IMG/VR virus record: IMGVR_UViG_3300033514_000533 | Coordinates: 1-24,448 of that record | Direction: 5' to 3' (one strand) | Origin: a virus | Lineage: Duplodnaviria > Caudoviricetes | DNA length: 24,448 nt | Shown: positions 484-16,037 of the stretch, in pieces | How positions within the stretch are numbered: the stretch's first letter is position 1 | How the letters are laid out: each line of letters starts with the position of its first letter | Program-made: the position numbers and the translations under genes | The notes under the pieces: model-generated | Told to the model about the DNA's origin: nothing | The model's database searches: none | Seen by the model: only the letters and a program-made list of their open reading frames with translations

Positions 484-2210
484 AACAACTTAATCTCCAA
501 TTCAAATGTTTTGAAAAGTGATTCTTTTTTCGCAGACGAAATCACTTCAGATGGTATTTGACCTAGTGTGATCAAACCATCGTGCATATTAACCAACACT
601 GTACAGTGCGGTGAATTCTCAATACCATTGCAAATATGCTGTATCGCGCTTGATTCATAGCTTGTAATGAAATGATAGCGAATTTTCAGAAAATTATAGT
701 AGATTTTTTTATCTAACACATGATAGTGCTTACCATTTGGTAATTTTATATAGATTTCATTATTGATTTCTATTTTGTTATCATTTAAATATCCGCGCAC
801 AACCTCATTAAATGAAGATAAATCATTTATTAAATCAGCCATTACAAGTGATATTTTCTTGCGATAAAAATCGGCTTCTCTCGCGTTAATACCTGCTTCC
901 ATAAGAAGCATATATAATGCACCTTCTTTACGGCGCAAAGACATGCCGTAAATCAAGCCATTAATAATGGCTTTTACTAAATTAACATATTTAGCATCCT
1001 GACTACCAAAAATCTCAATCGCTAAATTTTCTCTCGAAATTTCTCCGCGTGCGTACCTTCCGATCTTTTCGGAAGATTTATTGTTTAATGACAGCACCTC
1101 AGTTATGATTGTTGGGTGACATTTTTTAATGTCATAATTGTTATATTGCAACCCACTTAACGCATATCTCTTGAATTCTGTCGGCATATTTTGAAATGGT
1201 ACTTCTATTTCAGACCAACGTCCGCCTTCTTGTTCATTATAAATAGAAATATAGAACATATAGCCATCAATCTCCAATCCAACATCATTAAGATGCTTAA
1301 GATAATTGATAGCAATTGCGCGCTTAATGGTATCCGTTTCTTTATTAATATAATCGTTAATGCCAGATATATTTTGAGGAACGATATATCCTATTTTGCG
1401 TTTATCCGATGTTAATGACTTCTTTATTAATGACTTCGATGATTTCTTGGATAACTTTACAACAACAAAATCAACAGATTCAAGATCATTAATATCCTTA
1501 ATGGTCGCCAAATCTACAACAACACTTGCTGAATTGTCGTGATTATGATTATATTTATTGTAATCGTTAATATAGCCATTATACACGCTATTGGGTATTG
1601 TGTATCTGCGGCATTTGCGAATATTTGTTGATGAATACCCGGTGCGAAACAATAAATTAAATGACGCTAAAATATTTGTATCACGAATGCTATACTTGTA
1701 CATTAATAAATCGCGAGAAATCCCTGTGACCTTTTTTCTAAAGTCATGTTTATTAAATGTATCGCGAGTATTTGATGGATAGAAATTCTCAAAATACTTG
1801 GAAAAAGTATAGCAATGCACAAATCTAATGTATTGACTGATTAATTTAATTCTATGTTTAAATCCGAGTTTATCCTTCTTAAAACTAAATGTGGTTTTTT
1901 CAGACAACGTGGTTTTCAAATCATCATCTGAATATGAATTCAATAATGAAAAAAGAGATTTTACATATCCAGATGATAAATATACATAATTATACTGTTC
2001 CAATTGGTTGACGGGAATTTTGGTCGACGCGAGACTACCTAGTAATTTTTTAATTACTATAGGGTTATCTAATGATAATATCGAGGATAATTCCGTATCT
2101 TTATCGCTATTTCTAAACAATCTAGCGATTTGATTCACAATTAATCCTTTTGTGCTGCTATTTATCATTGGATTTTCTGCAAAAAACTCGTCCAAAACTC
2201 TCGTGTTCAT
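480..2210 (-). CDS. Stand-alone family A polymerase-superfamily protein (PolA/T7-RNAP palm; TV-Pol-like) with no recognisable exonuclease domain
   Basis: C-terminal ~250 aa carry ordered motifs: GGRWS (cf. TGRLSS), motif A YDIKKCHPTI, motif B VKAIINGLIYG, ESSAI helix, motif C VNMHDGLI. RBS AAGGAAAAC precedes the ATG. The N-terminal ~320 aa are unrecognised. Confidence 0.65.
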   Translation of the reverse strand: MNTRVLDEFFAENPMINSSTKGLIVNQIARLFRNSDKDTELSSILSLDNPIVIKKLLGSLASTKIPVNQLEQYNYVYLSSGYVKSLFSLLNSYSDDDLKTTLSEKTTFSFKKDKLGFKHRIKLISQYIRFVHCYTFSKYFENFYPSNTRDTFNKHDFRKKVTGISRDLLMYKYSIRDTNILASFNLLFRTGYSSTNIRKCRRYTIPNSVYNGYINDYNKYNHNHDNSASVVVDLATIKDINDLESVDFVVVKLSKKSSKSLIKKSLTSDKRKIGYIVPQNISGINDYINKETDTIKRAIAINYLKHLNDVGLEIDGYMFYISIYNEQEGGRWSEIEVPFQNMPTEFKRYALSGLQYNNYDIKKCHPTIITEVLSLNNKSSEKIGRYARGEISRENLAIEIFGSQDAKYVNLVKAIINGLIYGMSLRRKEGALYMLLMEAGINAREADFYRKKISLVMADLINDLSSFNEVVRGYLNDNKIEINNEIYIKLPNGKHYHVLDKKIYYNFLKIRYHFITSYESSAIQHICNGIENSPHCTVLVNMHDGLITLGQIPSEVISSAKKESLFKTFELEIKLL

Positions 2211-2230: not shown

Positions 2231-3172
2231 TTATTTATTTAGATGTAATAAAAAACCGATGGCATTCATGTATTCGCAATATTCCTGTGGACATTTGTAA
2301 AAATCATCTGCTATCTTATTAAAGAGATAAGCACCACCCCCAACAAAAGCTATAAAATCTAATTTATCAAGAATATCATTGAAATTATCTTTAAGTATTT
2401 TTTCAATATCTATTTTATATTGGTCTAACAATTCTTTTACAATTTGAGAAACATCATAGGTCGTGCCGCGTCTCTTAAATGAACGAGAATATAGCACATC
2501 TTGACATTCTTTTAACTGCAAATCAATTTTGTAATTCTCTTTGATTGTCTCTTGCAATTTCCTAGCAACCGAAATTAACCCTGATTCTTTAATTCCTTTA
2601 ACATTTCCAGTTGAAACCACACCATTAATAACATGACATACATCAATAGTATTGAAACCAATATCAACAACAAAATAACTTTTATCTTCTAAAAATTCAG
2701 ATGTTGGTGTTGGAAATGTTGTGTAATATTTTTGAAATGCTAATTTCGCACCCACACCTTGAGGAAGCAGCGATAATTTAGTGTTTCCCATTCCGTTTGT
2801 ATTCAAATAATTTCTGATTACTTGTTGATATATTTGTCTAATAGGCAAAATTTGATAATGAAAAATAGACAAACCACAGCAAATTCCATTAGGGATTATT
2901 CCTAACATATTAATTGCGTGCTGCAATAATAATGGCGTGTACTTTTCTAACTCATCGTATGTTACAATATTAATTATATCATTTCTTTTTAGTGCTAAAT
3001 CACCAACGTAATAATATTTTCCGTTATAAGGAATAAGATTTTTATCTGTTACTAATCCTGTTGGCGGTAATTCTGCAACAGTAGAACTGAACTTAAATAT
3101 CTTTGATATATTCTGACCATCTCCAAATACCACTTTTGATGCTCCGAATCCTAAATCAATACCTGCAATCAT
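2231..3172 (-). CDS. ParM/StbA-like actin-fold ATPase
   Basis: Phosphate-1 IAGIDLGFGASK, PQG, phosphate-2 VVDIGFNTID and adenosine FVGGGA motifs. Start is best placed at ATG 3172 (GAGGAG RBS; TAATG overlap with the upstream gene). Confidence 0.85.
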   Translation of the reverse strand: MIAGIDLGFGASKVVFGDGQNISKIFKFSSTVAELPPTGLVTDKNLIPYNGKYYYVGDLALKRNDIINIVTYDELEKYTPLLLQHAINMLGIIPNGICCGLSIFHYQILPIRQIYQQVIRNYLNTNGMGNTKLSLLPQGVGAKLAFQKYYTTFPTPTSEFLEDKSYFVVDIGFNTIDVCHVINGVVSTGNVKGIKESGLISVARKLQETIKENYKIDLQLKECQDVLYSRSFKRRGTTYDVSQIVKELLDQYKIDIEKILKDNFNDILDKLDFIAFVGGGAYLFNKIADDFYKCPQEYCEYMNAIGFLLHLNK

Positions 3173-3471
3173 TAAAAACACTCCTCTTCAGCGGGAAGAA
3201 AATCAATATCTTGTTGTGTGGAATTTACAGCGTCAACAGCAGCACGCTCCATTTTTTTGTAAAGAATTTCACTGTGATCTATTTCATTTTGCTCTAATTC
3301 TTCTTGAATTGTTGTATTGTTGTTAATACTGGGTAATATTACCGTTTCTGGTTTATCCACATCAACTTCTTTTTTTGTTTCTGTAGCAGAGTAAACTATT
3401 GGTGTTTTGTTATCAAAAACTATTGTTAGTGAATTAATTGGTTGATCTGTTTCTAATGATAATTTAAACAT
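3172..3471 (-). CDS. Small acidic protein translationally coupled to the ParM-like gene (possible adaptor)
   Basis: The ORF track start (3531) lies inside a promoter. ATG at 3471 has an AGGA RBS and gives 99 aa, MFKLSLETDQPINSLTIVFD...; its stop overlaps the ParM start. Confidence 0.65.
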   Translation of the reverse strand: MFKLSLETDQPINSLTIVFDNKTPIVYSATETKKEVDVDKPETVILPSINNNTTIQEELEQNEIDHSEILYKKMERAAVDAVNSTQQDIDFLPAEEECF

Positions 3472-3502: not shown

Positions 3503-3531
3503 AGTATAGCATGAAAAAAATTAGATGTCAA
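3503..3531 (-). promoter_or_regulatory. sigma70 promoter PL1
   Basis: Minus strand TTGACA-N17-TATACT with TG extended -10. Confidence 0.8.
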
Positions 3532-3575
3532 TATAAAAATAAAAAAAACACGTTTACAATAATCTCTTTAAAAGC

Positions 3576-3604
3576 ATTATAACATCATCATAAATCATTG
3601 TCAA
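3576..3604 (-). promoter_or_regulatory. sigma70 promoter PL2
   Basis: Minus strand perfect TTGACA-N17-TATAAT with TG extended -10. Confidence 0.8.
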
Positions 3605-3671
3605 TAACTATATTTATATCCGTATATTAAATAAAATATTCAATATTATAGTTAAATTTCTTTAATAACAT

Positions 3672-3753
3672 TTTCTCTTATGCGTTAAACCCTAACCGTC
3701 TGCGTGCTTGTGCGGTCGCCGCACGCTGCGGAAGGGTAAACGCTCGTGAGAAA
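3672..3753 (+). repeat. GC-rich hairpin element, copy 1 (inverted relative to 4175-4256)
   Basis: Nested arms tttctc/gagaaa, gcgtt/aacgc, accct/agggt, ccgt/gcgg, gcgtgc/gcacgc around a 13-nt loop. Confidence 0.9.
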
Positions 3754-3788
3754 GTTCTCTAGTAATATAAAAAATATTAAAAGCATTG

Positions 3789-3936
3789 TATAATATAATA
3801 TATATAAACGAAAATTTGAGAAAGAATTATGTTGTGAGAAAAATTAAGTTCAGTCCTCATATTACAAACACATTGATATATATTCCTAACGCGTGCAACT
3901 TTTATAATTATTTGATTGTAAAGTAAATTCCTAGAA
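3789..3936 (+). repeat. ~150-bp direct repeat, copy A
   Basis: Matches 3996-4157. Contains an identical 27-bp core ttcctaacgcgtgcaacttttataatt (3883-3909 = 4103-4129) and begins with an AT-only tract. Confidence 0.9.
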
Positions 3937-3995
3937 GATGACGTGTTAAACATAATAAATATAGCATTTTTTAAAATAATTAATAAAAAGAATTA

Positions 3996-4157
3996 TATAA
4001 TATAATATATATAAATTAAATTTGAGAAAAAAATTAATTGAGAAAATGAGGTTGTGAGAAATATTAAGTTCATCCCCACACATAACACACACATTGATAT
4101 ATTTCCTAACGCGTGCAACTTTTATAATTGTTTGATTATGAAAGTAAATTCATAGAA
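3996..4157 (+). repeat. ~160-bp direct repeat, copy B
   Basis: Second copy, core offset 220 bp from copy A, with an extra TGAGAAA-containing insertion. Confidence 0.9.
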
Positions 4158-4174
4158 TCGTAGAAACTTATTTT

Positions 4175-4256
4175 TTTCTCACGAGCGTTTACCCTTCCGT
4201 AGCGGGCGGCACAGACGCAAGCCCGCAGACGGTTAGGGTTTAACGCATTAGAGAAA
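4175..4256 (-). repeat. GC-rich hairpin element, copy 2
   Basis: Reverse complement matches 3672-3753 closely. Inner stem is gcgggc/gcccgc (compensatory change versus gcgtgc/gcacgc); the loop is diverged but the same length. Confidence 0.9.
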
Positions 4257-4290
4257 TAATCAATTATAATTTTGGTGATTTTAATTTAGA

Positions 4291-4319
4291 TTGACAATGA
4301 GAAAATAAAATGATAATAT
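4291..4319 (+). promoter_or_regulatory. sigma70 promoter PR for the helicase operon
   Basis: TTGACA-N17-TAATAT with TG extended -10. Shares TTGACAATGA with PL2 and has a TGAGAAA box in the spacer. Confidence 0.7.
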
Positions 4320-4357
4320 GACAGTACGTGAAAAAAAGAAAAACAGGCAACAATTAA

Positions 4358-5752
4358 ATGATTAATGATCTTGCAGTATCATGTAGTTTGGGAAATACTA
4401 AAATAAGGGAAATTATATTTCCATTCTTACAAAGGATAAAATTTGATACACCTGCGGCTAGAATGATTAAAAAATATTTTTTAAATAGGAAAGATGGTAA
4501 TATTGAAATAGCAGAATTCACATCTTTTCTAGCAGGTACACCTTATGTAGATAAGGTGGATGGCGAGAAGAAAAATTTAAATTTTAATGAAATTAAGAAA
4601 ATTGTTGATATAGTAAAACACTATATAGATTTACCAGAGGATAAAATTGATGAATCTATAAAAACATTTGAAATTTATTATAAACAAAAATTAGCTAACA
4701 ATATTTTAAGTGACAATGATTCGCCGGAAAAGATTTTTGATGAATTTAAAAATGCAGAATTGTTTGATGCAAACAATATTAAAACCATTGATTCAGATGT
4801 AATTATTGAGAGAATTACGGATATTGAAATTGATGATGAAATAAGAAAAATTGGCACACCAATTCCTAGCTTTCTTAATAGCATTAATGAATCATGTAGT
4901 TATGGTGGATATATTAAAGGAACGATTAATTTAGTGTGCGCTCCACCGGGAGTAGGTAAAACTCTATTTATGTTAAATGAAGCAATAAATTTTTTAAGAC
5001 AAGGAAAAAAAGTATATTGGTTAAGTGTTGCAGATATGATGAAAATTGATATTATGACAAGAATGGCTTCAATATCTTGTAATATTCCAATGAAAGATGT
5101 GACCAGTAGATTACCTTTAAATGAACTTGATCAGCATTATTATAACATCTCTGTAGAAGAAATGTTATCAAAAAGAATAAAAAAATATTTTTATTGGGAA
5201 AACCATGATTTACAATATTACGACAATTTTTATTGTTCTATTGTTGATTCTGGGAGACTATCCGCTGATGATCTAGAGAGTGTTGTTAATAAAAAACTAA
5301 AACATCTTTTAGATAAGGATGTTGTTGATATTATTTTTTTAGATTATGATGGTGGAATTAAAAAAACTAAAAGTGATAATTCTTACGAAGAAGGTGAAAT
5401 ATTATACAATAAAGCTGTAGAAATAGCTAGAGATGATGAATCTAAATTATTATTTGTTGCTTCACAACCCGCCAAATGGTCATATTTGCACGAAGTTCTA
5501 TACATGGATAGTATCGGGGAATCTGCTAGAAAAGTTCAAATTGCAGATATGGGTATTTTTATTAGTAGGGTTACAACCAGTACAGGAGTTGTTAATATTG
5601 ATAGACAAAGACGTGGTGAGAAATTAAAATTTTTTTATGAAAGAAGTTCATCAGGAAGGATTTATGAAATTGACTATCATGAGTATCAGGAAATAAAACA
5701 AGAATATGATGAACAACAAAAGCGATTTGATAGTAGTTCAAAAAGAAGGTGA
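4358..5752 (+). CDS. Replicative SF4 helicase (DnaB/T4 gp41-like)
   Basis: Walker A APPGVGKT, H1a YWLSVADM, Walker B IIFLDYDG, H3 FVASQ, SIGESARKVQIAD and arginine-finger RQRRG. Confidence 0.85.
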   Translation: MINDLAVSCSLGNTKIREIIFPFLQRIKFDTPAARMIKKYFLNRKDGNIEIAEFTSFLAGTPYVDKVDGEKKNLNFNEIKKIVDIVKHYIDLPEDKIDESIKTFEIYYKQKLANNILSDNDSPEKIFDEFKNAELFDANNIKTIDSDVIIERITDIEIDDEIRKIGTPIPSFLNSINESCSYGGYIKGTINLVCAPPGVGKTLFMLNEAINFLRQGKKVYWLSVADMMKIDIMTRMASISCNIPMKDVTSRLPLNELDQHYYNISVEEMLSKRIKKYFYWENHDLQYYDNFYCSIVDSGRLSADDLESVVNKKLKHLLDKDVVDIIFLDYDGGIKKTKSDNSYEEGEILYNKAVEIARDDESKLLFVASQPAKWSYLHEVLYMDSIGESARKVQIADMGIFISRVTTSTGVVNIDRQRRGEKLKFFYERSSSGRIYEIDYHEYQEIKQEYDEQQKRFDSSSKRR

Positions 5753-7498: not shown

Positions 7499-8794
7499 AT
7501 GAGCATAACATTAAATAGAACAGTAAAAACACCACAAGAAGCTGTGAATGATTTTTCAAATCATTCTAATACACAAAAAGTAGCAGTTGGCTATATGCCG
7601 TACACAATTCCCGCAATGGAAAGTAGAGAATGGTTGGTTCGATTTTTTCCTATTGATTTGTTAGAGCAATACTTAAAAAGTGGCAGCAAGGAATCAATTA
7701 TTGATTTCAATTATAATATTGATGAAAATCCATTTCATAGACATATTGTATATCATGAAACAGATAAAGGTAGCGTTCCTTGTATGAACTTTTTAAGGCT
7801 CATTCCAGAAAGAAGAAATGGTCATGAAGAATATTGTGATATTTGTGGAACGCGTTTTAAGATATTAGACCTTCCCCCATCAGACGATAAGAAACTTGAA
7901 TATTTAAAATCTAAAGGCAAAACATTTAACAGTAATGGTCTGGAAGATAAGTTTTTTGAGTCTAATGTAGAAAAGAAATTGCAAAAAGGAATTCAACCAA
8001 CTAAAACATATCTGTATTTAATGTATGTTCATCAGTTTCCTTCTGATTACATAGAAAATAATAACAGTGTAGATTATTTACCAAAATTAAATAATCGTAT
8101 GCTTTTTGTAGCCAAAGTTAATAAAAAAACGCACGAATCTATTAACGCTTCGCTCGAATTTTATCTGAATAAAAAGAATAATGAGCAATTTATCAAGTCA
8201 ATCGATCCTAGAATTGATGTTGCACCTTATTTTACATTAAATTTTAAAGCGTCTTTAGAAAAGCCTAAAGACCCAAAATCAAAAAAATTGATCAGTTTGG
8301 TTTTGTCGTTATCAGATGATAATTGTGAATACAGCGATGATTTAAAGAAAGAACTTTCTGACGTGAAGGAAGGGAAAATCAAACCAGAAGATACAATGTT
8401 ATTTGGGAAGTCGAATGTAAAACAAGTTATTGTTGAAGATAAATATGATGCAGATAAACAGAAGGCAGCATTTAATTTCGCCAAATCTCAAATGAATGCT
8501 ATTTTTAGACAGAAAAATCGTGAAGATTTACTGCTTCCAATTGATAATACTAACGCAGTAGTTGTAAATATGTCATCGCAAGCAAATCAAAAGCATACAT
8601 GTTTTGGTAGCTTCTCGGAAGGAGATACAGACTGCATTAAATGTAGTTATTTAACACAATGTGAAAGTGCGACAGGTCGTCCTACCGTACCTACCGTACC
8701 TGTTCCTAGCTCTAAAGCTGCATTGGATAATAATATTAAAGCATTAACACATTCTGTCTCAGAATCAAATTTTGATGATGATGTTCCTTTTTAA
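7499..8794 (+). CDS. Single-stranded DNA-binding protein (T4 gp32-like)
   Basis: WLVRFFP (cf. gp32 VIRFLP), H...C...CDIC zinc ligands, acidic SSB tail NFDDDVPF, and location in a replication operon. Confidence 0.7.
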   Translation: MSITLNRTVKTPQEAVNDFSNHSNTQKVAVGYMPYTIPAMESREWLVRFFPIDLLEQYLKSGSKESIIDFNYNIDENPFHRHIVYHETDKGSVPCMNFLRLIPERRNGHEEYCDICGTRFKILDLPPSDDKKLEYLKSKGKTFNSNGLEDKFFESNVEKKLQKGIQPTKTYLYLMYVHQFPSDYIENNNSVDYLPKLNNRMLFVAKVNKKTHESINASLEFYLNKKNNEQFIKSIDPRIDVAPYFTLNFKASLEKPKDPKSKKLISLVLSLSDDNCEYSDDLKKELSDVKEGKIKPEDTMLFGKSNVKQVIVEDKYDADKQKAAFNFAKSQMNAIFRQKNREDLLLPIDNTNAVVVNMSSQANQKHTCFGSFSEGDTDCIKCSYLTQCESATGRPTVPTVPVPSSKAALDNNIKALTHSVSESNFDDDVPF

Positions 8795-8872: not shown

Positions 8873-9750
8873 ATGACAAAAGCATTAATAATCGCTGATG
8901 TTCATATTGATGATTATAGAGAACACAACTTAGAAAATGATGCTAAATTCAGATTAAATCAATTTATAAAATTAGCTTATAGAACTAAAGAGGTTATCGA
9001 AAATGAAAAATGTGAATATCTTTTTATTTGTGGTGATTTTTTAAACAAATCATCGCCACACCCATACATCTCAAATGTTGCAAAACAATTTTTAAAGATT
9101 GTAAGTAAAGTAGCAAAAGTTTATTTAGTGGCAGGTCAACACGATTTAGATACTAGGTCTAATCTTTCTTCTACTACAGTATGTAAACATGAAAACACGT
9201 ATTTAACGTTATTTGAAGAAATAGACAATGTTCATTATCTTCATAAGGATATATTGAGGATAGGTGATGTTGAAATAGGATTTAATGGTTGGGAAAATAA
9301 CTATGATTTATCGTGGATAAACGACAGATCATATAAAAAACAAGTTGATATTTTGATTAGCCATAAAACTATCAACGGATCACTATTAAGTAGTGGATAT
9401 AGTGTTAAAGGTAATGATATTTCGTTAGATTATTTTAATGTGGGTTTTTTTGGTGATATTCATAAATATCAAGTATTGAATAATGGCAAGGTAGTGATAC
9501 CGGGTGCAATTATACAACACTCTCTTGGGGATTGTGAAGATAATGCTTATATTGTTTGCAATATAGAAACGCAACAATGGTATCGAATCCCAACGGTATC
9601 TGAAAAATATAAATTTTTAGTCTTTAAAAAAGACAGCGAATCTAATTATGAAGAATTAATTGTATCTAAAAGTAAAGATAAGATCACAAGAAAGCATATA
9701 TATAACAAACTAAATATATTGGATTTAATCCAAGCATATATAGATAAACA
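8873..9750 (+). CDS. sbcD: Mre11/SbcD (gp47-like) metallophosphoesterase nuclease; exon 1 of a probable SbcD-SbcC fusion
   Basis: Motifs ADVH, CGDF, AGQHD, ISH, GDIH. Start ATG 8873. The frame is interrupted by the intron GTGCG at 9751; the track ORF runs on to a stop at 9772 inside the intron. Confidence 0.88.
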
Positions 9751-11880
9751 GTGCGATTTGTTGGTAGCCTAATACATAAGCTACCCAATTGATTTAGAAG
9801 ATAAAATCAATTGAACTGATGTGTAAAGTGGTGAAAACCCACCCGTCCCGGCATGGACGTGAAGCAGACCTACCCACAGGGAGATAGCTCAATTCTATCA
9901 AGCTGAAGCTGGGAATAGGACGGAATCAGAGGACTCACCTGAAGCCCACACTGCCGTTAGCTTAGTTCTCATGATGAAATGGTGTACAAACAATTGCCTG
10001 AAAAAGTCTCCAACTATACTATAGAAATAAAGGTGAAGCAAAAGAAACTATAGAATATCCAATACTCGCTAGATTATTGTTTAGATACTAGCAATGCTGA
10101 GTAGGATGTGGGGAAAATGGCAGCATCTAAAAGAACAGTATGGTTGCACATCGGAACAAATAAAAACGTCTGAAAGGTCTGGTAACTTGGTCGTTATCAG
10201 TAGGATAGATGAGAATCGGAATCCCTCAAGACGGGTAAGATGTCTCGTAATTGAGACAAGGATTTGAGAATGAATTTGCAAACTAACAACAATGGAATTA
10301 GACACATGATTACTAATCATAGTGAGTTCAAGACTGCTCAAATAACAGTCTTTAAGTTGCAAAAGCGAATTTATAAAGCTACCGCTAGAGGTGATTTACG
10401 GTCAGCACGTAAACTCCAAAAGTTGTTGCTCAACTCTCAATCAGCAAAGATAATAGCAGTACGTCAAGTAACACAATTGAATCAAGGTAAAAAGACAGCA
10501 GGTATTGATGGAATAATAGCATTAACACCAAAAGAAAGAATGGAATTGATAGTAAGATTGAGAATGTGGAAAACATGGAAACATCAAGCACTCAGAGAAA
10601 TCCCAATCAAGAAAAAGAATGGTAAAACTCGAATGCTAAAAATTCCCACAATCTCAGATAGAGCTTATCAATGCCTTCTGAAATTGGCACTAGAACCAGC
10701 ACATGAAGTCACTTTACATGAAAGAAGTTACGGGTTTAGAACAGGTCGAAGTGCACACGATGCACAGAAAAACGTGTTTGTCAACCTGAGAAGCAACTCC
10801 AATGGAAAAGACAAACGTGTATTGGAATTAGATATATCTCAATGCTTCGATAAAATCGAACATAAATCAATACTGGAAAAACTGATAGCTCCAAAATGGG
10901 CGATAAAAGGAATAAAACTAGCACTAAAAGCTGGAATAAACCCTGAATTCCCATCACAAGGCACACCACAAGGTGGAATAATTAGTCCGCTGTTAGCAAA
11001 CATTGCATTAAACGGTATAGAAAACATACACCCATCAATAAGATACGCAGATGATGTGGTAATATTTCTAAAACCAACCGATGATGAAAAAGCGATACTA
11101 AACAAGCTGCAAATATTCTTAACTGAAAGAGGATTGACAATAAATGAAGAGAAAACACGGGTAACACCAACAACCAAAGGTTTTAACTTTCTTGGGTGGA
11201 CGTTTATTAACAAACCCAATGGCAAATTAACCTGCTATCCTACAAATGAAAGCAGAGAAGAATTGACAAAGAAAGTGAAAAATCTAATCACTAAAAGCGG
11301 ATTACCAACAAGTGAAAAGGTAGTAAAACTAGCACCAATTATACGTGGCTGGAGAAACTACCATAAATACTGTGATATGACAGGAAATAACGGACTATGG
11401 AATCTAAATAAATGGACGTGGAAACAACTGCATAAAAACAAGAATGCAACAGTGTATCAGACGAACAGTCTAATACAAAAAGCATTCCCAACAGTAGATT
11501 ATAGCTTGTTTAGCTTTGTAAGTGTAAAGGGAAATAAATCCCCTTATGACGGCGATATGATGTATTGGTCAGCAAGAAATTCCAAACTGTACGATAATCA
11601 AACAGCCAAAGCACTAAAGAAGCAGGGTAATAAATGTGGAAAATGTGGTATGTACTTAACGGGAGAACAACCAGTTGAATTACACCATATAAATGGAAAT
11701 CACAGTGACAACAAGCCTAAAAACTTAATAGCAATACATCGCTCATGTCACATAGAAATCCACTCCACGTATAGCAAAGGTCTGATAAACCTAACAAATT
11801 CGGGAGCCGTGTGAGGTGAAAGTCTCATGCACGGATTTAATCGAGAAGCGTCCTATATAATAGTAGGCGTTGACTCAACT
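9751..11880 (+). mobile_element. Group IIB intron (chloroplast-like/cyanobacterial CL-type), complete with IEP
   Basis: 5' GTGCG; DI closing stem atttgtt/aacaaat; EBS1 TGTTTA (10078-10083, in a gctag/ctagc loop) complementary to the exon end TAAACA; J2/3 AGA at 10212; DV gagccgtgtgaggtgaaagtctcatgcacggattt (~11803-11838); DVI with bulged A11873. Confidence 0.92.
10264..11814 (+). CDS. ltrA: Group II intron reverse transcriptase/maturase with HNH endonuclease
   Basis: RT0 LQKRIYKA/NQGKKTAGIDG, RMLKIPTISDR, SYGFRTGRSAHDA, GTPQGGIISPLLANI, RYADD, X domain IRGWRNY, CGKC...HHINGNHSDNKPKNL...CH. The real start may be ATG 10270 or 10306. Confidence 0.95.
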   Translation: MRMNLQTNNNGIRHMITNHSEFKTAQITVFKLQKRIYKATARGDLRSARKLQKLLLNSQSAKIIAVRQVTQLNQGKKTAGIDGIIALTPKERMELIVRLRMWKTWKHQALREIPIKKKNGKTRMLKIPTISDRAYQCLLKLALEPAHEVTLHERSYGFRTGRSAHDAQKNVFVNLRSNSNGKDKRVLELDISQCFDKIEHKSILEKLIAPKWAIKGIKLALKAGINPEFPSQGTPQGGIISPLLANIALNGIENIHPSIRYADDVVIFLKPTDDEKAILNKLQIFLTERGLTINEEKTRVTPTTKGFNFLGWTFINKPNGKLTCYPTNESREELTKKVKNLITKSGLPTSEKVVKLAPIIRGWRNYHKYCDMTGNNGLWNLNKWTWKQLHKNKNATVYQTNSLIQKAFPTVDYSLFSFVSVKGNKSPYDGDMMYWSARNSKLYDNQTAKALKKQGNKCGKCGMYLTGEQPVELHHINGNHSDNKPKNLIAIHRSCHIEIHSTYSKGLINLTNSGAV

Positions 11881-13870
11881 TAATATGTCAGCAATTCATT
11901 CATATTATTTTAATAAAATAAAAGATGGGATTGAGTCTTTTATTGATTGCGATTTTACAATCAATTCTGTTGAATTGAAGAATTTTCGATCTGTTGAATA
12001 TTTAAAGTTCTTACCAAAAGAAGGTATTACACTGATACAGGGAGATGTTGGCAGTGGAAAATCAACATTAATTAATGCTATTAGGTATGTCTTCTTAGAT
12101 GCAAAAGACTCTATCAATCTGAAGGACTTGGTTAAGCTGAATTCAAAATCAATGAGCGTGTCTATTGAGATAGCGTATCAAGGGCATACACATTATATTG
12201 AGCGAGGTTATGCCAAAAATAGCGGTTACTTGATATATAAAATTAACAACAAACTAATTGAGTCTGAAAATCAATCCAGCATAAAAAGTCACATTTCAAA
12301 TAATTTAAGATTTTTAAAGCTATTTAATGTTTTTTTCTTTAATCAGCGTAGAGAAGGTTTTTTAAGCAGTTATTCTTATTCTGAACGCGTTTCTTTAATA
12401 TCTGACATTCTAAACTTAGATATATTAGATAAGATATATAGATTAGTTGTTGATGATGTCGCTAAATTAAAAAATGAGATTAGTTTAATTTCAAATGAAA
12501 TAAACAGTAAAACAGCGACAATAAATGCAAGAAAAGAGCAGATAGCGCATTGGAATAGTGATATTGATTATCAATCATTAATTGCAGATAATTTGAGATT
12601 AATATCTATTTATTCTTTGATAATAGAGTTAAACGAAAAAACAGAATCGCATTCTAAACAGCAACAGATTAATCGTAAAATTGTTGAATCATTGTCTGAT
12701 TTGCCGCAGTTATTGTCAAAATCAACGGATAAAACACCGTTACTATTAGAAAAAAATAACTTATTGTCTTTGCTAGAAGAATCGACATCGGAATTAATAC
12801 GCAGACAAAAATTATTAGAAAAATATAAAAATGAAATCAATAAAATTCAGTTAAATGTTGATATTTTAAAAAAACAAAGAGATGTCTTAAAAGAATCAAA
12901 ATGTCATGCTTGCGGACATTCGTTAAATGCAGAAGAAATAGAATCTCTAAAACAAAAAACAGATTTGAGTATTTCAGAAAACGAAAACAGATTGGAAAAA
13001 GGTAAAAAAGCTGTAGAAAGTATTGATATAGACAGTGTTGAATTAAAAAATTACAAAATTAAATCACTTATATCTGAAATTGACAATAAGATTTCGTTGA
13101 TTCTTGCAGAAGAAGATAATTTCATAAAACAACAAAACAATCAAAGAAAGTTAGCTGTTGCAAAAGATATTATAACTACTTCTGAAAACCAAATAGAGGC
13201 TTTACAACACAAAATTCTTGCTGTTTGTGAAGAGCATAATGTACAGCCGATAAATGCCTACCAAGAAGTGATGAAGTTGAAGGAGGAAAATGCTGGCTTT
13301 AATCAGTTGCTTATATTAAAAAACAAATATCAGATTTCACTTGAAAAAATAGAAAAAGATGAGGCAACTCTAAAGGATACTCAGCACTCTCTTGCAATAA
13401 AAGAGGCTAATCTAGTGGATTTGTCGAAATATTTAGAATTGTTTTCTCCAAAAGGTGAGATTCTACTGTCGATTTTAAATGAGTTATCCCAAATATTCTC
13501 AAACAATCATATTAATGTTCGTTCTATTAAAAAATTAACAAACGGTGATGTAAGACCAGATTTCGATATTGATTTTAAAGTAGATAATGAGTGGATAAAG
13601 TATGATATGTGTAGCGGCGGTCAGCAAACCATAATAGATATTTCAATACTAGAAAAGCTATATGGGATATTAGGAAAGGTTGGTGTGTTGGCATTTGATG
13701 AGACATTTAAGTTTTTAGGGGATTCTGATACAGAGCAGGTGTTGCAATCAATAAAATTAATTGATGCTAATCACGTATTTATCATATCTCATGCTCAAAA
13801 TTTTCCTTATTCGGATTCTTTAATCAAAGTTGACTTTGATAAAAAAAGCATATATAATGTTGTGTTTTAA
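11881..13870 (+). CDS. sbcC: Rad50/SbcC (gp46-like) SMC ATPase; exon 2 of a probable SbcD-SbcC fusion
   Basis: ELKNFRS, Walker A GDVGSGKS, Q-loop FFNQ, coiled coils with a CHAC zinc hook, signature CSGGQ, Walker B AFDE, ISH switch. Confidence 0.9.
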
Positions 13871-14603: not shown

Positions 14604-16037
14604 ATGAAAATATTAATTGTTGATCCCCAGAATTACAATTTATTGGATTTTGCATTGTCTTGCATGGCAATTGGTCATGACATAACATATTATATCGAAA
14701 GTACAGATAGAAATAATTTAACAGGTAGCGGTTTATTGGAAATATCTTCTTCATGGGAAGATAAGTTAGAAGGTAAGGATTTGATTTTATTTGCTACAAA
14801 TAATTACAAAAATGAACTTGTAGATAAGTTGATATCGGGCAATTATCCAGTTGTTGGTGCGGGTTCTTTGGGTAGTAAATTAGAGTCCGATAGAGAATTT
14901 GGGATTGATATTCTTAAACAATATAATATTTTCAATACTATTCCATGTAAAAAATTCAATACTAAGTATGAATGCGAACAATATATTGTCAATAATTCAG
15001 ATCAAAGATTTGTTTTTAAACCGCCCGGCGAAACTATTGATAAATCCATGACGTATGTCAGTAGAAATAATAAAGATTTGTTGTTTATGTTGAGTTATTG
15101 GGAAAAACTAGGCAAACTACCATCGCAATTTTATTTGCAGAAATTTATTAAAGGAGTGGAAATGGCTGTTGGTAGTTGGTTTAGTTATAAATCAGGTTTT
15201 TCAAGATATGTGTTTGAAAATTTTGAATTTAAAAAGCTCATGAATGATGATTTGGGTGTTGCTACATACGAGCAGGGTACAGTGGGCAGATATGTTTTAG
15301 GTGCTAAATCAAAACTAGCTCAATCCGTTCTATTTAAAATAGAGAGCTATTTAAAGCAAATAAAATATATTGGATATATAGATGTAAATTGCATTGTAAG
15401 CAATGAGGGGATAGCATATCCACTAGAATTTACTACTAGATTCGGATATCCAACATTTGCATTACAAAGCACATTACACAAAGGCGATCCTGCTCAGTTT
15501 TTATTGGATTTAACTCAAGGTAAAGATACACTGAGAGTAGATGAAAGTGTAGCTACATGTGTTGTTTTATCGCAACCAGATTATCCTTATGATAAAATAC
15601 CAGTTGAACAACAGGTTGGGATACCAATTTTTGGAATAACAAAAGAAAATAGAAAATTCATTAAATTGTTTTTGGCTATGCAAACTAAAGTGCCTGAAAT
15701 TATCGACGGCAAAATACAACAAGTAAATGAATTTGCAACAACAGGCGGTTTTATTATGTGTTGTGTTGGAGTAGGAGGTTCTGTTCAAGAATCCCAAGAT
15801 AGAGCATATAAATTAGTGAAAACCATAGAAATTCCAAACTCATTGATGTATAGAACTGATATTGGCGACAGATTAGAACATCAAATCCCGATACTGCATT
15901 CTTTAGGCTATTGTAACGATATGGAATATGGTGCAAATTTCAAATATAAACAAGAAGATATAAATCAAAAACCATCAGATAATCAAAGCAGTATAGCAAG
16001 AAGCACTTTAGATTATCTATCTACATTAGTTGTATAA
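14604..16037 (+). CDS. PurD (GAR synthetase)-like ATP-grasp ligase
   Basis: LESDREFG (cf. LEGSKAF), FVFKP, QKFIKGVE, EFTTRFGYP (cf. EFNxRFGDP), TGG and YRTDIG; GGAG RBS. Lacks the N-terminal GxGGREH. Confidence 0.75.
   Translation: MKILIVDPQNYNLLDFALSCMAIGHDITYYIESTDRNNLTGSGLLEISSSWEDKLEGKDLILFATNNYKNELVDKLISGNYPVVGAGSLGSKLESDREFGIDILKQYNIFNTIPCKKFNTKYECEQYIVNNSDQRFVFKPPGETIDKSMTYVSRNNKDLLFMLSYWEKLGKLPSQFYLQKFIKGVEMAVGSWFSYKSGFSRYVFENFEFKKLMNDDLGVATYEQGTVGRYVLGAKSKLAQSVLFKIESYLKQIKYIGYIDVNCIVSNEGIAYPLEFTTRFGYPTFALQSTLHKGDPAQFLLDLTQGKDTLRVDESVATCVVLSQPDYPYDKIPVEQQVGIPIFGITKENRKFIKLFLAMQTKVPEIIDGKIQQVNEFATTGGFIMCCVGVGGSVQESQDRAYKLVKTIEIPNSLMYRTDIGDRLEHQIPILHSLGYCNDMEYGANFKYKQEDINQKPSDNQSSIARSTLDYLSTLVV

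Follow-up and report, generated by a model that had tools for sequence, protein, structure and literature searches.

Does the Caudoviricetes genome of IMG/VR record IMGVR_UViG_3300033514_000533 carry two adjacent genes, one for an Mre11/SbcD-type nuclease and one for a Rad50/SbcC-type ATPase, or a single fused gene interrupted by a group II intron, and at which base would such an intron end? The window analyzed here is the whole virus record (24,448 nt), which encodes a helicase, a primase, a Cas4-like exonuclease, and actin-like partition genes. In this window, a metallophosphoesterase frame opens at the ATG at 8873 and runs into GTGCG at 9751, and an SbcC-like frame reaches position 13870. 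We consider it highly probable that a group IIB intron lies inside codon 293 of a gene that was already fused, and that it splices at GUGCG...AACU, which would restore a nuclease–ATPase of 955 aa.

An Intron-Less Allele in Run X12

Eight microbial-mat runs share at least half of the words of the stretch. We compared eight of 20 sequencing runs with the window, all as contigs and one of them RNA (X18), leaving out the small-share runs X13–X17, X19, and X20 and the mat runs X3–X7. The intron-bearing form predominates in seven of the eight runs compared. In one contig of run X12, position 9750 is followed at once by 11881, and the 2,130 bases left out begin with GT and finish with CT; the joint is unambiguous. 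This intron-less contig is 276 nt long, has a depth of 3, covers 174 and 102 bases on the two sides of the joint, and shows 11 differences. The same joint was not listed for the seven other runs compared. Another X12 contig, which is more diverged, departs from the window at 9747 and goes on in frame as exon-2-like sequence.

The X12 joint implies that T11880 belongs to the intron and that a natural intron-less allele has the fused frame. It also bears out two elements of the original prediction, a first interpretation made from the letters of the stretch alone: the end of exon 1 at 9750, to which the pairing between exon-binding site 1 (EBS1) and intron-binding site 1 (IBS1) points as well, and the end of the intron at 11880, not 11879. 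We recomputed both joins and obtained the products that had been foreseen. Ligation of 9750 to 11880 brings a stop at codon 294 (293 aa), and ligation to 11881 yields a 955-aa product in which every nuclease and ABC-ATPase motif is retained, the metallophosphoesterase motifs standing N-terminal to the ABC-ATPase in one frame. Three further neighboring joins gave 302–306 aa each.

Identity of the Intron

The intron's 5′ end, GTGCG at 9751 directly after ...AAACA, matches the group II start GUGYG. At the other end, RF00029 matches 11802–11879 with 50.4 bits (cut-off 40), and this match and the fold identify a domain V with its AGC triad and a domain VI with a bulged A. The intron-encoded protein (IEP) contains the Pfam domains RVT_N, RVT_1, and GIIM, a YADD motif, and PHROG HNH matches; against TIGR04416 it scores 286 bits, just below the cut-off of 300. 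The Rfam models of D1–D4 gave no match at E ≤ 1 over 9600–10400. Traits of subgroup IIB are exon recognition through EBS1, EBS2 (at an inferred position), and EBS3, and a branch A at −8. The assignment to CL2 (IIB2) rests on the 5′ consensus and on cyanobacterial relatives, and the intron is best described as CL2-like; the CL2 label and the names of the domain I elements are presumably applicable here.

RF00029 ends the intron one base short (11879 vs. 11880). When the intron ends at 11880, the bulged A11873 occupies position −8, as had been pointed out before, and the 3′ end reads ACU, which departs from the group II AY consensus, although this is a consensus and not a strict rule. We infer that the 3′ site is set by a predicted γ pair between A10238 and U11880, a predicted EBS3 pair between A10117 and U11881, and the branch A at −8.

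Cyanobacterial Relatives and the Register of the 3′ End

Searches with the reverse transcriptase (RT) identified cyanobacterial relatives with IEPs 44–65% identical. From 75 candidates, 46 relatives were kept, after removal of 7 members of the intron's own family, 5 nested or interrupted introns, 7 duplicates, and 10 that lacked a 3′ end. The purine of GGTA(R)GA, taken as γ, pairs with branch A+7 in 35 of 37 relatives (shuffle mean 26.6; none of 10,000 shuffles as high) and with branch A+6 in 21 of 37 (p 0.13). For the base at the EBS3 position, pairing with A+8 is seen in 21 of 28 relatives (shuffle mean 9.6; no shuffle in 10,000 reached that count), as against 6 of the 28 for A+7. Moreover, alignment column 10238 covaries with the last intron base in all 33 relatives of an alignment set that excludes two non-pairing relatives ending in ACA, the figure with these being 35 of 37. 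The host frame is restored at A+7 in all eight decidable loci (of 34), including two with ACC ends.

These data also bear on the placement of γ. It had been put at the AGA at 10212. That sequence is indeed present but is not J2/3; pairing between its column and the final base of the intron occurs in 10 of 33 relatives, whereas column 10238 pairs in all 33. The alternative of a J2/3 GGA at 10218 was likewise rejected, with pairing in 19 of 33. Hence the position changed to 10238 and the nature of the pair, an A facing the terminal U, did not; because γ is still an A, the earlier argument from the terminal U survives.

At A+7, the 46 relatives end in ACC (23), AAC (13), AAT (6), ACA (2), ATC (1), or ACT (1); that is, 27 of them have non-AY 3′ ends at the same register, and the view that the 3′ end is a peculiarity of this intron is not supported. 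On a quick RT tree, made up without reference IEPs and with long branches flagged, AY and non-AY ends interleave with 10 changes (55 and 71 of 500 shuffles were as low). As judged from these sequences, the ACU end is a lineage trait, the penultimate base being apparently free in this cyanobacterial intron lineage, and the "non-canonical" 3′ site is standard IIB spacing with a penultimate base (A or C) that seems to be relaxed. RF00029 stops one base early on ACC/ACU forms, which in annotation would split one gene into two. Our searches of open-access literature turned up no account of ACC/ACU ends in cyanobacterial introns, and the Zimmerly database and subscription papers may well record them.

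Two further observations concern the relatives. Two related cyanobacterial introns, in L009 and L017, seem to start with GAACGATTCG, not GTGCGATTCG, some 600 nt upstream of where the RT matches, and to end in ACC; both of their ends may be non-standard. In L011 (124, 237), L012 (1578, 1777), L018, and L008, we noticed group II introns that are nested, one sitting in another's domain I or RT gene.

The Fused Gene and Its Homologs

A search with the ATPase half at 363–1157 aa returned the protein itself and four others, all four fused, and a search with the nuclease half returned 11 long proteins, again all fused; the fused state was thus found in 15 of 15 non-self protein homologs. None of 474 candidates of 160–511 aa matched the nuclease half, and the exon-1 protein found no relative among the viral contigs. 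The 955-aa product aligns end to end with the homologs P0006 and P0007 (35% identity), and the length across residues 286–300 is the same in 12 of the 15 homologs, two being one residue shorter and one two residues longer. At least 80% of P0006 is covered in one place in 13 of 23 matching GenBank phage records, and in the cultured Rhizobium phage RHph_TM30 the fusion is a single coding sequence of 2,880 nt. An apparently split gene in RHph_TM39 (L076 123–2920) was set aside, as it proved to be an exact tandem duplication of 1,399 nt, likely an assembly artifact. Weak support for the fused state may also come from 24 distant viral loci (24–29% identity, many near-copies), 22 of which run 1029–1161 aa to a stop and two of which run off the locus; an in-frame Walker-B-like motif occurs in 23 of them, and none passed a strict test for Walker A plus signature.

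The nuclease carries GQHD in place of GNH(D/E), a variant common to the close homologs. In a structure model of P0006 (pLDDT 80.6, pTM 0.42), whose top Foldseek match is Mre11-Rad50-Nbs1 7zr1 (E 7e-20), the position of the intron junction corresponds to the loop in a helix-loop-helix that lies between the nuclease and the ATPase. Because homologs without the intron are fused, the fusion predates the intron, and it is, as far as the homologs indicate, the ancestral state of this gene family. The proposal that nuclease and ATPase form one polypeptide whose synthesis depends on splicing is therefore supported, at the level of sequence, by the fused intron-less relatives and the X12 allele. Intron-less relatives with separate sbcD and sbcC genes at the junction would have told against it; the X12 allele, the homologs, and RHph_TM30 are fused there instead.

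The Same Intron at Other Sites

The same intron occurs with five different 3′ flanks (window, X9/X10, X11, X1, and L002). T11880 is kept at all five, the next base being T, A, T, C, and A. One X8 contig differs from the window at EBS2 (10014, 10017), EBS1 (10083), and EBS3 (10117 A>T), and these changes run in the directions needed for a second site whose 3′ exon starts with A after AACT. In all of X11, and partly in X2 and X9, position 10117 reads G. A flank of a second insertion site gave nothing when compared with viral contigs, and a pattern scan of metagenomes gave only two loci, both without the intron 5′ end. Natural alleles with changed EBS1–3 at several sites would be a convenient system for watching retargeting. 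In a second strain (L021), about 91% identical around exon 2, both exons are open with all motifs, which argues that splicing works.

A 93%-identical copy of the intron occupies L002/L022 1–1734, on a 6.7-kb contig binned as Chloroflexota, near tRNA genes and phage-like short open reading frames (ORFs); the contig is probably a mis-binned phage piece. L021 has, right after the fusion gene (1411–1992, minus strand), an extra ORF of 193 aa that looks GNAT acetyltransferase-like by eye and is absent from the window. Runs X8 and X9 cover exon 1 and the intron, and window positions 11922–13750 (in exon 2) are uncovered in X8 and barely covered in X9, which may reflect a divergent exon 2 or a filter effect.

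Proposed Pathway and Alternative Readings

In the pathway that we propose, a maturase-assisted ribozyme would form a lariat at A11873, and ligation of 9750 to 11881 would be guided by EBS1/2, EBS3, and γ. The spliced mRNA would encode one nuclease–ATPase chain of putative activity, which may serve in recombination-dependent replication of the phage, as suggested by T4 gp46/47 described in PMC3175470. Unspliced RNA would give a 299-aa nuclease without half of its Rad50-binding helix pair. An endonuclease-bearing ribonucleoprotein, with a predicted maturase function, would direct homing to intron-less alleles of the X12 kind, and the intron may occasionally move to new sites, EBS1–3 changing to match.

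Several points weigh against this reading. The intron-less joint is one contig of depth 3 in one of eight runs, and the RNA run X18 contains intron and exon pieces and no contig across the exon junction. The γ and EBS3 shuffles ignore kinship among the relatives, a Watson–Crick EBS3 pair is absent in 7 of 28 relatives, and in X11 the EBS3 G would face T (wobble). Since no contig spans the whole intron, the EBS variants are tied to their flanks by co-occurrence in a run. Finally, the nuclease-half search behind the 11 fused proteins could return long proteins only.

A different product set would arise if 3′ splicing alternated between sites one base apart, by a slip in the CUU run, giving both the 955-aa fusion and, through the sequence stop/one base/ATG11885, a separate nuclease and ATPase, a switch that the original prediction had offered as speculation. 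Mis-splicing at 11879 does produce a stop with an in-frame ATG one base on, both in the window and in L021, but any T that precedes a codon for Asn or Asp creates such a stop. T11880 could be a partner for the EBS3 A; however, at 11879 the γ A would stand opposite C and the branch at −7, so that both γ pairing and branch spacing fail, whereas in the precedent of B.a.I2, where two sites 4 nt apart yield unfused and fused products, each site has its own γ and EBS3 pair (PMC4424553). In RmInt1, a pyrimidine run blurs the 3′ site during circle formation, yet 35 of 35 clones showed its exons correctly ligated (PMC4238363). According to the structure model, the split form would part the helix-loop-helix between two chains, and no split homolog was found by the ATPase-half search or among the 474 short candidates compared with the nuclease half. 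The lack of a Shine–Dalgarno match before ATG11885 (−2.0, +0.4 kcal/mol) says little, as three of four control starts are also weak. The switch, which finds no support here, would if true be a natural splicing toggle between fused and split DNA-repair machines and far more interesting, but we regard it as very unlikely.

That the boundary is right and splicing is poor or nil, the gene being largely inactivated and the phage relying on host enzymes or on a co-infecting intron-less phage, seems very unlikely to us: the IEP, domain V, and branch site are intact, both exons are open with all motifs in two strains, and the intron-bearing form predominates in most runs, although spliced RNA was not seen in the X18 contigs and RmInt1 ligates less than 1% of exons in vivo (PMC4238363). 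The probability is close to nil for an intron that ends at AAC (11879), with sbcD as a separate gene interrupted in its final codon and sbcC coupled behind it. T11880 is absent from the intron-less allele, which contradicts that end despite the agreement with RF00029 and with the AY consensus and despite a stop-one base-ATG arrangement that resembles translational coupling; the γ, EBS3, and host-frame tests favor A+7; and the homologs are continuous across the junction.

Coordinates and Neighboring Features

The elements of the interrupted fusion gene, with the intron taken to end at 11880, are collected in table 1. Elsewhere in the window, a promoter scan stayed at chance level (20 found vs. 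25.4 expected). A variable 9-nt repeat and strain-specific replacements occur at 8670–8770, in the tail of the ORF that precedes the fusion gene. Positions 14604–16037, close to the replication genes, encode an ATP-grasp protein of 477 aa whose GARS (PurD) domains are weak. At 2231–3181 and 3531–4358 we noticed a ParM/MreB-like actin gene on the minus strand and a change of sign in the GC skew; the skew flips near 4000, where a gap poor in genes separates divergent blocks, possibly an origin or promoter region.

Table 1. Elements of the Interrupted Gene and Its Intron (window coordinates)
Feature	Position	Strand	Basis or remark
Exon 1, Mre11/SbcD-type metallophosphoesterase	8873..9750	+	Codons 1–292 plus two bases; Pfam Metallophos 4e-11
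Exon 1 motifs	8873..9750	+	DxH, GD, GQHD, GDIH
First helix of helix-loop-helix, within exon 1		+	Placed from structure model of homolog P0006
IBS2 (TATAG), predicted pairing with EBS2	9739..9743	+	Complement CTATA at 10014
IBS1 (TAAACA)	9745..9750	+	Complementary to EBS1 (10078–10083), itself in a hairpin loop
Group IIB (CL2-like) intron, 2,130 nt, GUGCG...AACU	9751..11880	+	Intron-less contig joint; RF00029
EBS2, predicted	10014..10018	+	Analogy with relatives; 10014 and 10017 altered in X8 allele
EBS1 (TGTTTA)	10078..10083	+	Partner of IBS1; A>C at 10083 in X8, fits flank ending GAAACA
EBS3 (A), predicted pairing with T11881	10117	+	Same position pairs with branch A+8 in 21/28 relatives
J2/3 AGA, γ = A10238, predicted pairing with U11880	10238..10240	+	35/37 relatives; best alignment column
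IEP, up to 516 aa: RT (YADD), maturase X, HNH endonuclease	10264..11814	+	
Domains V and VI; AGC triad 11805–11807; branch A11873	11802..11880	+	RF00029 alignment; fold
Exon 2: second helix of helix-loop-helix, linker, Rad50/SbcC ATPase	11881..13870	+	Pfam AAA_23, SMC_N; phrog_77 8e-40
Exon 2 motifs	11881..13870	+	Coiled coil and zinc hook; Walker A, Q-loop, CxxC, SGGQ, Walker B, H-loop

Comparison with Known Systems

Mre11/Rad50 (SbcD/SbcC) fusions have been described in Mimivirus (R555), Bacillus phage 0305phi8-36, plasmids, and cells (PMC3175470). Like these, the window gene encodes in a single frame an N-terminal metallophosphoesterase, a helix-loop-helix, a linker, and then an ABC-ATPase bearing a coiled coil and a zinc hook, and it is found in a virus; unlike these, it has GQHD replacing GNH(D/E), and a group II intron breaks it in the loop of the helix-loop-helix, with the consequence that annotation shows two ORFs. 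Phage group II introns are known too, and 9,229 IMG/VR genomes carry matches (PMC12350094). The present intron resembles those of that study in encoding an RT, in residing in a conserved phage DNA-metabolism gene, and in having a boundary fixed by intron-less homologs; 3′ ends were taken there largely from a D5/D6 model (PMC12350094), and that model stops one base short here. The supplement of that paper contains no SbcC, SbcD, Rad50, or Mre11 term and does not list the sister contigs L001 and L102, and we found no report of a group II intron in this phage recombination gene in the open-access literature.

As for the intron itself, the group II 3′ consensus is AXX(X)XRAY (PMC7923331). Cyanobacterial CL2/IIB2 introns such as Trichodesmium Tr.e.I7 (PMC4649490) share with it the 5′ sequence GUGCGAUU, EBS3, an RT-X-En protein, and the branch A at −8; it differs from them in standing on its own long branch with L002, in being phage-borne, and in its ACU end, a rare form that 1 of 46 relatives has. 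RmInt1, from Sinorhizobium meliloti, ends in CC before CC and forms aberrant circles, but is a class D intron without an endonuclease, within a transposase gene (PMC4238363). That paper describes a CC end as almost confined to RmInt1 and certain introns of class D, whereas non-AY ends are the majority in the cyanobacterial lineage studied here. B.a.I2 has γ and EBS3 pairs at both of its 3′ sites (PMC4424553), and the window intron would have them at 11880 only.

The locus adds a phage recombination gene to the hosts of group II introns, with a boundary fixed by a natural intron-less allele, and its importance is modest. Because the 3′ end, the fusion, and the phage intron are each of kinds already known, with precedents for the fusion (PMC3175470) and for the odd end (PMC4238363), we claim no new mechanism: the locus is assembled from known parts and is a new example of them.

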